A stretch of 7,299 nucleotides of DNA, taken from IMG/VR virus record IMGVR_UViG_2778261449_000001; one strand, given 5' to 3'. The stretch is from a virus (taxonomy: Duplodnaviria > Heunggongvirae > Uroviricota > Caudoviricetes). A program made the position numbers and the translations under genes. Under the pieces are notes generated by a model. The model was not told where the DNA came from, searched no databases, and saw only the letters and a program-made list of their open reading frames with translations. Shown here piece by piece: positions 5,330 through 7,041 of this stretch. How positions within the stretch are numbered: position 1 is the stretch's first letter; each line of letters starts with the position of its first letter.

Positions 5330-5551
5330 ATGTTTCATTGTCCGAAATGCCATCATGCCGCCCACGCCCGCACGAGTCGCTATTTTACTGATACCACAAA
5401 AGAGCGGTATCACCAGTGCACAAACATTAACTGCAGCTGCACGTTTGTGACCACTGAAACAGTCGAGCGTTTTATCGTGTCGCCGGGGGAAGTAGTACCC
5501 GCGCCGCCGCATCCGACATCATCAGGTCAGCAACAAATTCACTGGATGTGA
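5330..5551 (+). CDS. ogr: Ogr/Delta-family zinc-finger late transcription activator
   Basis: MFHCPKCHHAAHARTSRYFTDTTKERYHQCTNINCSCTF… carries the C-x2-C-x22-C-x4-C zinc finger and closely matches my recollection of the P2 Ogr N-terminus (MFHCPLC…). I prefer the ATG at 5330, with GGAG 9 nt upstream, over the TTG at 5306 used by the ORF track. An AT-rich promoter-like region lies at 5255-5305. Confidence 0.9.
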   Translation: MFHCPKCHHAAHARTSRYFTDTTKERYHQCTNINCSCTFVTTETVERFIVSPGEVVPAPPHPTSSGQQQIHWM

Positions 5552-5558
5552 CAAACGA

Positions 5559-5586
5559 GAAAGCCCCGCGAATGCGGGGCTTTTTG
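5559..5586 (+). terminator. Rho-independent terminator downstream of ogr
   Basis: AAAGCCCCGC-GAAT-GCGGGGCTTTTTG: a perfect 7-bp GC-rich stem (5563-5569 / 5574-5580) with a 4-nt loop, followed by T5. Confidence 0.85.
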
Positions 5587-5857
5587 CAACTTTTAGATCA
5601 GTTATGTTAAGTACATTTCCGTCGGCAAAGTGCCAGGAGCGGGTTCTAGAGAGTGACTAACGTTAGTTATATGTGTAAAATTCCTTAAAAATAAGAAGGA
5701 TATATATCCATGACAGCAATTGCATATTGGATTAACTGAGAATCAATTGAGAAATTTTTGGGGGGGCAAAAAATAAACTAGCTAATTAAATTTTTATAAA
5801 TAACGAATATAAGACTGCAAGCCATTTAACAAAAGTTTATAAATAAAGGAGTCAGTT

Positions 5858-6709
5858 TTGAACAATATCCCCATATCTACTCAATGGACTTTAGACGCTA
5901 CGGGTGAAGTTGGACGCTCATCAGTAAATTCTGTTTATATGATTATATGTCCTGCGACAGGCTCGAAAGGATCTGGTTTTTTAATAGATAATGGGTTAAT
6001 AGTAACGAACGAGCATGTTATCACTGGATGCTCTACAAATCAGATTTTCGCAATTTCAGCTTATGGACAGAAGATTCCAATTTCTCAAAAATGGATAGAT
6101 TCTGATCGCGATTTAGCTGTGCTGAGACCTGCCATTACCCAGACTGGTGGGCTAAGTATTGTTAAGGATAATGATCTTAAAGTTGGTGAATCAGTAACAA
6201 CTTGGGGATACCCATTAGGATACAACGGTCCTGCACCGTTACTATCCGTTGGTTATCTAGCAGGATTTAACTCATACCAAACCGCCAAGGGACAAAAAAA
6301 ACATCTAGTGGTAAATGGGGCATTTAACTCAGGAAATTCTGGTGGAGCTCTTTTAAAAGCTTCAGATAATAAAGTAATAGGTATTGTAGTGAGTAAGCAT
6401 GCTCCTATCAGTCAATACCATCAATCAGCTATTGAAGCTTTGTCTGAAAATATGAGTGGCGTCACCTATACCGCTACTAATGACGCTGGAGAAACTAAAA
6501 GTTTTGTAGAATCTCAAATTGTAGCAGAATTATTGATTCATATGAGAAGTCTAACTCAAGTTATGATTGGAGAAGCAATTGCAGCAGAGGAATTACTTTC
6601 GATGCTTAGCGAAATTGACTTGAGTCCACCACAATCTATGTCAAGAAATGCCTTATGTCATTGCGGGAGTGGAAAACGCTTCAAAGAATGTCATGGAAAG
6701 ATATCCTAG
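5858..6709 (+). CDS. Cytoplasmic trypsin/chymotrypsin-like serine protease with a C-terminal SEC-C zinc-binding motif; prophage cargo (moron) gene and candidate defence effector
   Basis: 283-aa ORF with a TTG start at 5858 and SD AGGAG 6 nt upstream. Motifs read directly from the translation: GSGFLIDNGLIVTNEHV (His box), DSDRDLAVL (Asp) and NSGNSGGALL (GxSGG serine box) form a trypsin-like catalytic triad. The C-terminus NALCHCGSGKRFKECHG matches the SEC-C metal-binding motif found at the SecA C-terminus. There is no N-terminal signal peptide or transmembrane segment. The gene is markedly AT-rich compared with the flanking phage genes. Confidence 0.8.
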   Translation: MNNIPISTQWTLDATGEVGRSSVNSVYMIICPATGSKGSGFLIDNGLIVTNEHVITGCSTNQIFAISAYGQKIPISQKWIDSDRDLAVLRPAITQTGGLSIVKDNDLKVGESVTTWGYPLGYNGPAPLLSVGYLAGFNSYQTAKGQKKHLVVNGAFNSGNSGGALLKASDNKVIGIVVSKHAPISQYHQSAIEALSENMSGVTYTATNDAGETKSFVESQIVAELLIHMRSLTQVMIGEAIAAEELLSMLSEIDLSPPQSMSRNALCHCGSGKRFKECHGKIS

Positions 6710-6854
6710 TAAGTACTTATATCAGTCTGATAATGGCTCTTCCAATACAAAAGACTTCACTTACTCTGCCGTCATCTCTGCTCCTCGCTTATTGCAGACG
6801 GTCAAAAGCTTACAAGCTGTTGACTAGATGTGTTCTTACATTGTCAGTTAAAAC

Positions 6855-6882
6855 AAAAGCCCCGCAAATGCGGGGCTTTTTG
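6855..6882 (+). terminator. Rho-independent terminator downstream of the cargo gene; near-identical copy of the ogr terminator
   Basis: AAAGCCCCGC-AAAT-GCGGGGCTTTTTG: stem 6859-6865 / 6870-6876, then T5. It differs from the 5559-5586 terminator at a single loop base. Confidence 0.85.
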
Positions 6883-6947
6883 TATCGATGTGGTCAATGT
6901 GTGGACATTGATAGAAATAAATCCATTTATTTCAGTAAGTTACATGC

Positions 6948-6974
6948 AAAAAATAAGCCCGTGTAAGGGAGATT
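6948..6974. other. att: P2-type attachment core (prophage-host junction)
   Basis: AAAAAATAAGCCCGTGTAAGGGAGATT matches the 27-bp P2 att core as I recall it. It lies where attP sits in P2 (just after ogr) and overlaps the terminator of the minus-strand sRNA gene. No integrase ORF follows, consistent with host DNA beyond. Confidence 0.7.
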
Positions 6975-7034
6975 ACACAGGCTAAGGAGGTGGTTCCTGG
7001 TACAGCTAGCATTTTATGGGTTATGTTTTTCAGC
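6948..7034 (-). ncRNA. cyaR: Hfq-dependent, CRP-activated small RNA CyaR (RyeE)
   Basis: The reverse complement reads GCTGAAAAACATAACCCATAAAATGCTAGCTGTACCAGGAACCACCTCCTTAGCCTGTGTAATCTCCCTTACACGGGCTTATTTTTT (87 nt), which matches my memory of E. coli CyaR. It ends in an intrinsic terminator (stem CCTGTGTAA / TTACACGGG, then T-run) that coincides with the P2 att core. In E. coli K-12 cyaR is known to lie next to the cryptic P2 remnant (ogrK). Confidence 0.7.
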
Positions 7035-7041
7035 GAAACGG

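Follow-up and report, generated by a model that had tools for sequence, protein, structure and literature searches.

At the right end of a P2-like prophage of Escherichia coli, two almost identical GC-rich hairpins stand on either side of a foreign gene. They lie in a 7,299-nucleotide (nt) stretch of DNA (IMG/VR virus record IMGVR_UViG_2778261449_000001), the whole of which is called the window here, one of them (T1, 5560–5586) after the phage gene ogr and the other (T2, 6856–6882) before the Int-binding arm of the attachment site (att). The reading favoured here, which we consider probable rather than settled, is that two copies of the phage's own bidirectional terminator stand at the ends of a cargo slot that lies between ogr and the Int-binding arm, and that the duplication is old and has an insulating function. 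The two hairpins most likely work as insulating terminators. How would a phage come to have the same terminator twice? Did the second copy arrive with the cargo? Is the pair the scar of a recent insertion? Comparison with relatives that have no cargo at this place, or a different one, addresses many of these questions.

T1 (AAAGCCCCGCGAATGCGGGGCTTTTTG) and T2 (AAAGCCCCGCAAATGCGGGGCTTTTTG) are built from the same two arms and read AAAGCCCCGC-GAAT-GCGGGGCTTTTTG and AAAGCCCCGC-AAAT-GCGGGGCTTTTTG, respectively. A repeat search of the window aligned them over 27 nt with 26 bases alike (96%), 1296 nt apart from start to start, the sole mismatch being the first loop base (G5570 vs A6866). The first-pass annotation of this DNA had described near-identical direct repeats that differ at one loop base and bracket an AT-rich insert, and this description is confirmed; its repeat ends at 5586 and 6882 are right, its starts at 5559 and 6855 each one base early. 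With up to three mismatches allowed, T1 and T2 are the only sites of the pattern in the window, where 200 dinucleotide shuffles lead one to expect none. RNA folding gives both a stem of 10–12 base pairs (bp) and a loop of 4 nt, with energies for T1 and T2 of −21.5 and −20.8 kcal/mol on the plus strand and of −19.1 and −20.4 kcal/mol on the minus strand (z-scores −4 to −6). A terminator consensus scan lists both as terminator-like, and on the plus strand each GC-rich stem is followed by TTTTTG; on the minus strand the tail is TTTTGTTTT after T2 and a weaker TTTCTCGTTTG after T1. The shape of both, an A-tract and a T-tract around the stem, is that predicted for a bidirectional intrinsic terminator. 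Both copies are near the family consensus, the same 24-mer standing 3' of ogr in Enterobacter phage ENT4 and in loci L027, L103, L111, L124, L134 and L149, and the window pair is the best preserved of the 34 non-redundant cargo loci introduced below, being the only one with both hairpins at or below −20 kcal/mol. Further exact double copies of the hairpin in viral contigs were not seen among the first 120 matches listed.

Two side observations concern the loops. In the same prophage of E. coli WCHEC005784, an IS150 element (L004 3772–5216, corresponding to window position 5571) sits in the T1 loop with a CGA target duplication and splits the ogr-proximal hairpin, which makes this strain a natural T1 knockout. 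Among relatives, otherwise identical stems carry the loop AAAT or its reverse complement ATTT (L005 4672–4690 and L116 vs window 6856–6882), the pattern that template switching within a hairpin (loop inversion) would leave.

The state without cargo is the key to what these hairpins are. In P2, the hairpin AAAGCCCCTCAGTCGAGGGGCTTT (NC_001895 24265–24288) begins 10 nt past ogr, the Int P-arm site begins 4 nt past the hairpin, and according to its annotation this hairpin is a rho-independent terminator that serves both the ogr transcript and the F operon. The ogrK remnant of K-12 has a single hairpin in the same arrangement, and in ENT4 the ogr stop is followed by 7 nt, AAAGCCCCGCAAATGCGGGGCTTTTTT and the P-arm, this single terminator being identical to T2 over the first 26 of 27 nt. 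All 14 cargo-less loci of our survey have one hairpin, flush with ogr and with the P-arm; the first-pass annotation had anticipated such contiguity of ogr, terminator and att in cargo-less relatives, and none of these has two copies. In the window, ogr (5330–5551, plus strand) encodes a late-gene activator with an Ogr/Delta zinc finger (Pfam PF04606, E=1.7e-20) and is the final conserved phage gene ahead of the attachment site. T1 occupies the same position relative to ogr as the single terminator of the cargo-less relatives, while T2 ends 6 nt upstream of the Int arm-type (P-arm) repeats of attR (TGTGGTCAATGTGTGGAC, 6889–6906, plus strand), identified by a sequence and spacing as in the annotated P2 Int P-arm site. 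The left flank of T1 and the right flank of T2 match P2, K-12, ENT4 and 11 further cargo-less loci, and what the window has in addition to the cargo-less relatives is exactly one hairpin copy plus 5587–6855. Because cargo-less relatives have one copy, and because the flanks of that copy are split between T1 and T2, sequence comparison supports the view that the hairpins are two copies of the ogr terminator, and the earlier term ‘duplicated ogr terminator’ is a fair description. Could two unrelated GC-rich terminators have come to look alike by chance or convergence? Hairpin matches of 22–27 nt do occur after lambdoid lysis genes and in at least 120 viral contigs, so the stem is common among enterobacterial phage terminators. 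However, the 26/27 match includes the loop and both homopolymer tracts, with none expected in shuffles, and the flank that anchors each copy has homology to the single-copy state. This flank homology effectively refutes chance likeness, to which we give next to no weight.

The cargo itself offers a second line of evidence. It consists of a gene for a trypsin-like serine peptidase of 283 amino acids with a C-terminal SEC-C motif (5858–6709, plus strand; Pfam Trypsin_2 1e-19, SEC-C 3.6e-7) behind an AT-rich leader (5635–5857, plus strand) that is 83–87% identical to the region upstream of a Klebsiella homologue. The 223-nt leader travels with the protease gene, the Klebsiella homology beginning only at 5634/5635, and a consensus scan places candidate sigma-70 promoters in it at 5653–5681 and 5747–5774. 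No known RNA family was found in the slot, only sub-threshold terminator-like matches. The best PADLOC match of the peptidase is the protease domain of a retron type XI reverse transcriptase-protease (7e-21); the PADLOC matches are at domain level only (retron XI protease domain, PDC-M35A), and the peptidase gene is a candidate for a role in defence or abortive infection. Of 5426 complete E. coli genomes, 35 have the cargo, never at another site and never with another ogr allele; conversely, each of the 35 genomes with the allele at ≥99% identity holds it, and two more distant alleles (A15, KV7) hold another cargo. A derivative of the prophage that had lost the cargo was not found in any of the 5426, and no sign of the suggested repeat-mediated deletion was seen there. 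Protease homologues with 82–90% amino acid identity are found in Klebsiella chromosomes (yedK-umuDC), at the end of a Mu-like prophage and in a Yersinia prophage, with nucleotide homology to window positions 5634–6711 or 5780–6802. Counting the P2 slot of the window, the protease is a mobile single-gene module seen in at least four contexts. About 65 nt past the protease stop, all module contexts keep a 3' hairpin with covarying stems (TCTGC..GCAGA at 6774–6800 of the window; GTCCGCT..AGCGGAC in Klebsiella; about 3915–3940 in L179 and about 11058–11085 in L100).

Is T2, or T1, the cargo's own terminator? A moron is an independently transcribed extra phage gene with its own promoter and terminator and a deviant G+C content (Juhala et al. 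2000; Cumby, Davidson and Maxwell 2012, PMC3594210). The cargo fits this in being missing from P2, ENT4 and K-12 and in its G+C (30–43% between T1 and T2 vs 52–58% in the phage genes to the left). Since morons classically bring both a promoter and a terminator (PMC3594210), one hairpin might have been imported with the cargo from a related phage, with no duplication at all, and in several relatives (e.g. L014, L128, L140) the att-side hairpin is indeed unlike the ogr terminator. Against this, a GCCCCGC hairpin is missing from the protease homologues in the Klebsiella, Mu-like and Yersinia contexts, where the 3' hairpins are of other kinds; T2 is a match to ENT4's resident terminator and adjoins the P-arm just as that one does; and att-side hairpins are present also where the cargo open reading frame (ORF) is on the opposite strand, an ORF that they cannot terminate. 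Because the protease contexts outside the P2 slot are without the GCCCCGC hairpin, both hairpins are phage-derived, and the predicted effective terminator of the cargo, T2, would be the phage's and not the module's. The idea that a terminator arrived with the cargo, one of two routes offered by the first-pass annotation, was rejected on this ground, and we consider it improbable.

The other route was an insertion scar: entry of the protease at the ogr terminator would have duplicated a 27-bp target recently. Several features suit this explanation. The two copies are alike at 26 of 27 positions, ENT4 is just the empty site to be expected, and the AT-rich tract begins and ends at the hairpins. 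The inner borders of the slot tell a different story. On the left, 56 nt inside T1 (5587–5642, core CCGTCGGCAAAGTGCCAGGAGCGG; defined by alignment, blastn and motif positions in relatives) are kept in P2-like phages with other cargos and missing from cargo-less phages and from the protease module elsewhere, the motif lying +64 to +82 nt past ogr in L097, L100, L106 and L109. On the right, 82 nt inside T2 (6774–6855, from alignments and blastn) belong to the protease module as its 3' flank. The window shares its sequence from ogr through T1 as far as about 5642 with L100, L193, L097, L099 and L109 at 78–83% identity, and that from about 6775 through T2, the P-arm and att with L100, L121 and L193. 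These relatives hold other cargos, among them an EAL protein and a 4.9-kb insert. Because relatives with unrelated cargos share both inner borders, the variable part of the window is about 5643–6773, and the claim of a clean scar of this particular cargo does not survive. In particular, 48 nt (5587–5634) between T1 and the module belong neither to the protease module nor to cargo-less phages, and are common to phages with other cargos.

The age of the site points the same way. The flanks of the lineages sharing the slot have diverged by about 20%, and because they are only about 80% identical, the double-terminator site is, by sequence divergence, judged to be old. Nor is the near-identity of the copies evidence of recency, because both are near the consensus and because T1 and T2 of one genome are no more alike than T1 and the T2 of other phages (permutation p = 0.13, 34 loci); concerted evolution and recent duplication were both looked for in this comparison and gave no signal. 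One point can be turned in favour of the scar: the right border, which begins with the module 3' hairpin, persists as a remnant beside the unrelated cargos of L100, L121 and L193. Because these loci retain that hairpin, the protease occupied the slot before their present cargos, and may be an early, even the founding, cargo. Taken with the older border and the diverged flanks, a fresh scar is unlikely, though the least unlikely of the rivals.

It seems reasonable, then, to ask what two terminators would do for the phage. Structure, position and the P2 annotation are what point to the functions of T1 and T2. T1 would stop ogr and late-operon transcription, so that the protease would be expressed from its own promoter in the leader; T2 would bring the protease transcript to an end 6 nt short of the Int arm sites and 69 nt short of the convergent cyaR, a host small RNA (sRNA) gene, and in the opposite direction may back up the cyaR terminator. 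Insulation of cyaR from read-through had been proposed for the second copy, and its location between cargo and cyaR makes this possible; the ancestral job of T2 is better put as ending transcription ahead of attP/attR, next to the arm sites. The duplication of the terminator would date from the time when DNA first inserted there, through a staggered break, or template switching during replication, across the hairpin, both junctions lying in A and T tracts. Later turnover of cargo inside the slot would have proceeded by illegitimate recombination, leaving remnants such as the left border and the 3'-terminal part of the protease module, and homologous recombination in the long conserved flanks may have carried cargo from phage to phage. 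Cargo swapping by homologous recombination, as first suggested, is accordingly possible in itself, yet conserved flanks much longer than 27 bp are available and the repeats are unneeded for it. The 26/27 identity would reflect purifying selection on a consensus terminator and not a recent event.

How general is this arrangement? A survey of 160 loci encoding Ogr relatives includes 52 with a P2-type P-arm downstream, and in all 52 the P-arm repeats stand directly 3' of a hairpin. Between ogr and the P-arm, 38 of these 52 hold a cargo of 430–4946 nt, and the cargos fall into at least 24 unrelated sequence families, with ApeA/HEPN, an OLD-like ATPase, DUF4238, an AbiC-like protein and an EAL/CSS phosphodiesterase as examples. 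To be counted as T-like, a hairpin could depart from GCCCCGC/GCGGGGC at no more than one position per arm. Of the layouts among the 34 non-redundant cargo loci, the one with a T-like hairpin at either end of the cargo is the most frequent (14/34), and the expectation that different cargos would be found between equivalent hairpin pairs is borne out in these other P2-like prophages. A T-like hairpin stands on the att side only in five loci, or six with A15, where a group II intron displaces the hairpin, and on the ogr side only in another five. A strong ogr-side hairpin is present in 17 of the 18 loci whose main cargo ORF converges on ogr vs 8 of the 16 that are co-directional; this pattern, no more than suggestive since the loci are non-independent, fits selection for a terminator where transcription would collide.

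Some of these results weigh against an old duplication kept for insulation. A T-like hairpin is found on one side only in 10 or 11 cargo loci, and nine or 10 of the 34 have other hairpins or none; about a quarter of the cargo-bearing relatives are without a T-like hairpin on either side. Because some cargo loci have one such hairpin or none, two terminator copies are not obligatory. The survey is biased to close relatives of the window ogr allele, and its loci are phylogenetically non-independent. The conservation of structure (95.5% of cells paired in 20 post-ogr hairpins) and the compensatory changes (nine of 10 pairs with changes on both sides vs 4.0 in shuffles) speak for terminators, but come from sequences pre-selected for folding. 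Terminator and promoter activity are predictions, with the P2 annotation as the only experimental anchor, and the mechanism of duplication given above is likewise a reconstruction. In addition, A15-type prophages have their cargo between ogr and the terminator and no T1, and a terminator–cargo–terminator order could arise by recombination of such a phage, with cargo upstream of the terminator, with one that has its cargo downstream.

A different role for the hairpins would be that of entry points. The terminator pair with its inner borders (CCGTCGGCAAAGTGCCAGGAGC ... GCTCCTCGCTTATTGCAGACGG) could be a dedicated cargo landing pad, which we regard as a long shot. Entry would then proceed by hairpin-provoked breaks, by template switching or by a hairpin-recognising recombination activity, and such a pad, if true, would amount to a general mechanism for the entry of morons into phage genomes. 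Still less probable is that the hairpins, or the inner inverted repeats of 22–24 nt, are sites of a dedicated cassette-exchange system (recombinase, transposase or retroelement), their terminator function being incidental. These hairpins are indeed targets of mobile elements (a group II intron in A15, KV7, L091 and L092; IS150 in the T1 loop of WCHEC005784), junctions lie at hairpin edges in several independent cargo families, and the border cores form imperfect inverted repeats, CCGTCGGCAAAGTGCCAGGAGC at 5619–5640 matching the reverse complement of GCTCCTCGCTTATTGCAGACGG at 6779–6800 in 17 of 22 positions (18/24 in L100 by eye). However, this similarity, the outcome of looking for long terminal inverted repeats around the cargo, is marginal (shuffle p about 0.02), and it concerns three loci only, few loci having both borders. 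No recombinase is encoded in the slot, no end sequences are common to the cargo families, the hairpin is without attC-like features, and the P2 hairpin is annotated as a terminator.

The group II intron is of interest in its own right. It is found in relatives at the cyaR site (Rfam RF02001, RF01998 and RF00029; L005 4683–6590 in E. coli A15, L006, L091 and L092) and starts with GTGCG, 3 nt past the T-tail of the att-proximal ogr-type terminator. Insertion after intrinsic terminators is a known trait of class C group II introns. By analogy, the placement suggests that a mobile element reads the att-proximal hairpin as a terminator.

The surroundings are those of a P2-like prophage end. The window is the right end of the prophage integrated at cyaR, with the tail genes FII, E/E', T, U and D followed by ogr, and E. 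coli WP2-S18-ESBL-07 matches it at 100%, with yegQ beyond the prophage end. Ogr, labelled DNA-binding transcriptional regulator in RefSeq, is 74% identical to that of P2 and 96% to that of ENT4. The att core (AAAAAATAAGCCCGTGTAAGGGAGATT, 6948–6974) is identical to the annotated 27-bp attP core of P2 and overlaps the 3' end of cyaR (ryeE; 6951–7036, minus strand; Rfam RF00112, 100.7 bits, E=7e-20, full length), which is convergent with the cargo and separated by 69 nt from T2. Integration of P2-like phages at cyaR is seen in the window and in the K-12 ogrK remnant. Far from the slot, a hairpin with TTTTTTG (977–1005) lies near the end of a gpE-like ORF (711–1025) with a downstream ORF at 1058–1180 described as overlapping, and resembles the site of programmed −1 frameshifting in the E/E' tail chaperone pair of P2. 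On the host side, a ParD/ParE toxin-antitoxin pair lies between yegQ and yegP (L003 6334–6928, vs L001 and L173), and in several other strains; it is without counterpart in K-12 and in one other prophage carrier, and forms a small variable host island adjoining the integration site.

How does the slot compare with known systems? As in a transposon target-site duplication, direct repeats of resident sequence surround an insert, and the empty site has one copy. Unlike it, the repeat of 27 bp is far longer than typical, no transposase is encoded and no element ends are present at the junctions; with 48 nt of older border between T1 and the module, this candidate was set aside. The hairpins also recall repetitive extragenic palindromic elements and bacterial interspersed mosaic elements (REP/BIME), being GC-rich imperfect palindromes in intergenic DNA. 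With a 41-nt query, 1764 of 5426 E. coli genomes show partial matches, the median number of places per genome being one and the maximum four, and the three inspected places are all terminators after lysis genes of lambdoid prophages. The sequence is not dispersed, and a REP-like element, against which the first-pass annotation had itself guarded, is rejected. Hairpins that almost equal the ogr terminator stand after the lambdoid lysis cassette in many E. coli genomes (L202 1500–1527; L203 1498–1523), the end of which is another classical moron site; the terminator sequence is common to unrelated phage groups. An integron attC cassette was rejected on reading the sequence, which has no integron integrase, a perfect short stem and no common cargo end.

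The closest counterpart of the hairpins is the ogr/F-operon terminator of P2, which likewise stands after ogr and before the Int arm sites, in the same AAAGCCCC...GGGGCTTTTT frame and with the same sequence on either side; one compensatory change, G-C to U-A, is all that separates the stems. P2 has one copy and no cargo here, whereas the window has two copies 1.3 kb apart with foreign DNA between them. A duplication of the ogr terminator was not found described in the literature searched. The cargo resembles a classical moron in being an AT-rich single gene with its own conserved leader and putative promoter region, not in related phages, bounded by terminators and placed at a prophage end. 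The difference is that its downstream terminator is a second copy of the resident phage terminator, the native 3' hairpin of the module (6774–6800) being present but degenerate.

The slot as a whole can be set beside the P2-like hotspots, which have been described at gpA-gpQ (old/tin), at the tail Z/fun site, at int-att and at int-primase (Rousset 2022, PMC9122126; NAR 2026, PMC13586616), with a ‘third hotspot between a tail protein and CI’ (iLund4u preprint 10.1101/2024.10.15.618418). The interval from ogr to the P-arm is not singled out in the published descriptions compared here, and the word terminator does not occur in PMC9122126 or in PMC13586616. How morons and defence genes enter fixed phage hotspots is still largely unexplained, and a hotspot edged on both sides by copies of one resident terminator, with many unrelated cargos between them, suggests that terminator hairpins are preferred as junctions. 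It suggests a simple design rule as well, in which a terminator on each side isolates the cargo from the late operon and from the attachment site and host sRNA. Defined in this way, the ogr-to-P-arm interval is a cargo slot rich in defence-like genes and worth mining beside the known P2 hotspots. Like them, it is a small locus between conserved features with a high turnover of cargo, many of its cargos are defence-like (ApeA/HEPN, OLD-like ATPase, AbiC-like), and the same cargo is found in other mobile contexts. Its parts are all known, namely the P2 ogr terminator, a classical moron, a concept already established (PMC3594210), and a known integration site. The arrangement is no new kind of element; it is a modest variant of a fairly ordinary way for phages to carry extra genes.

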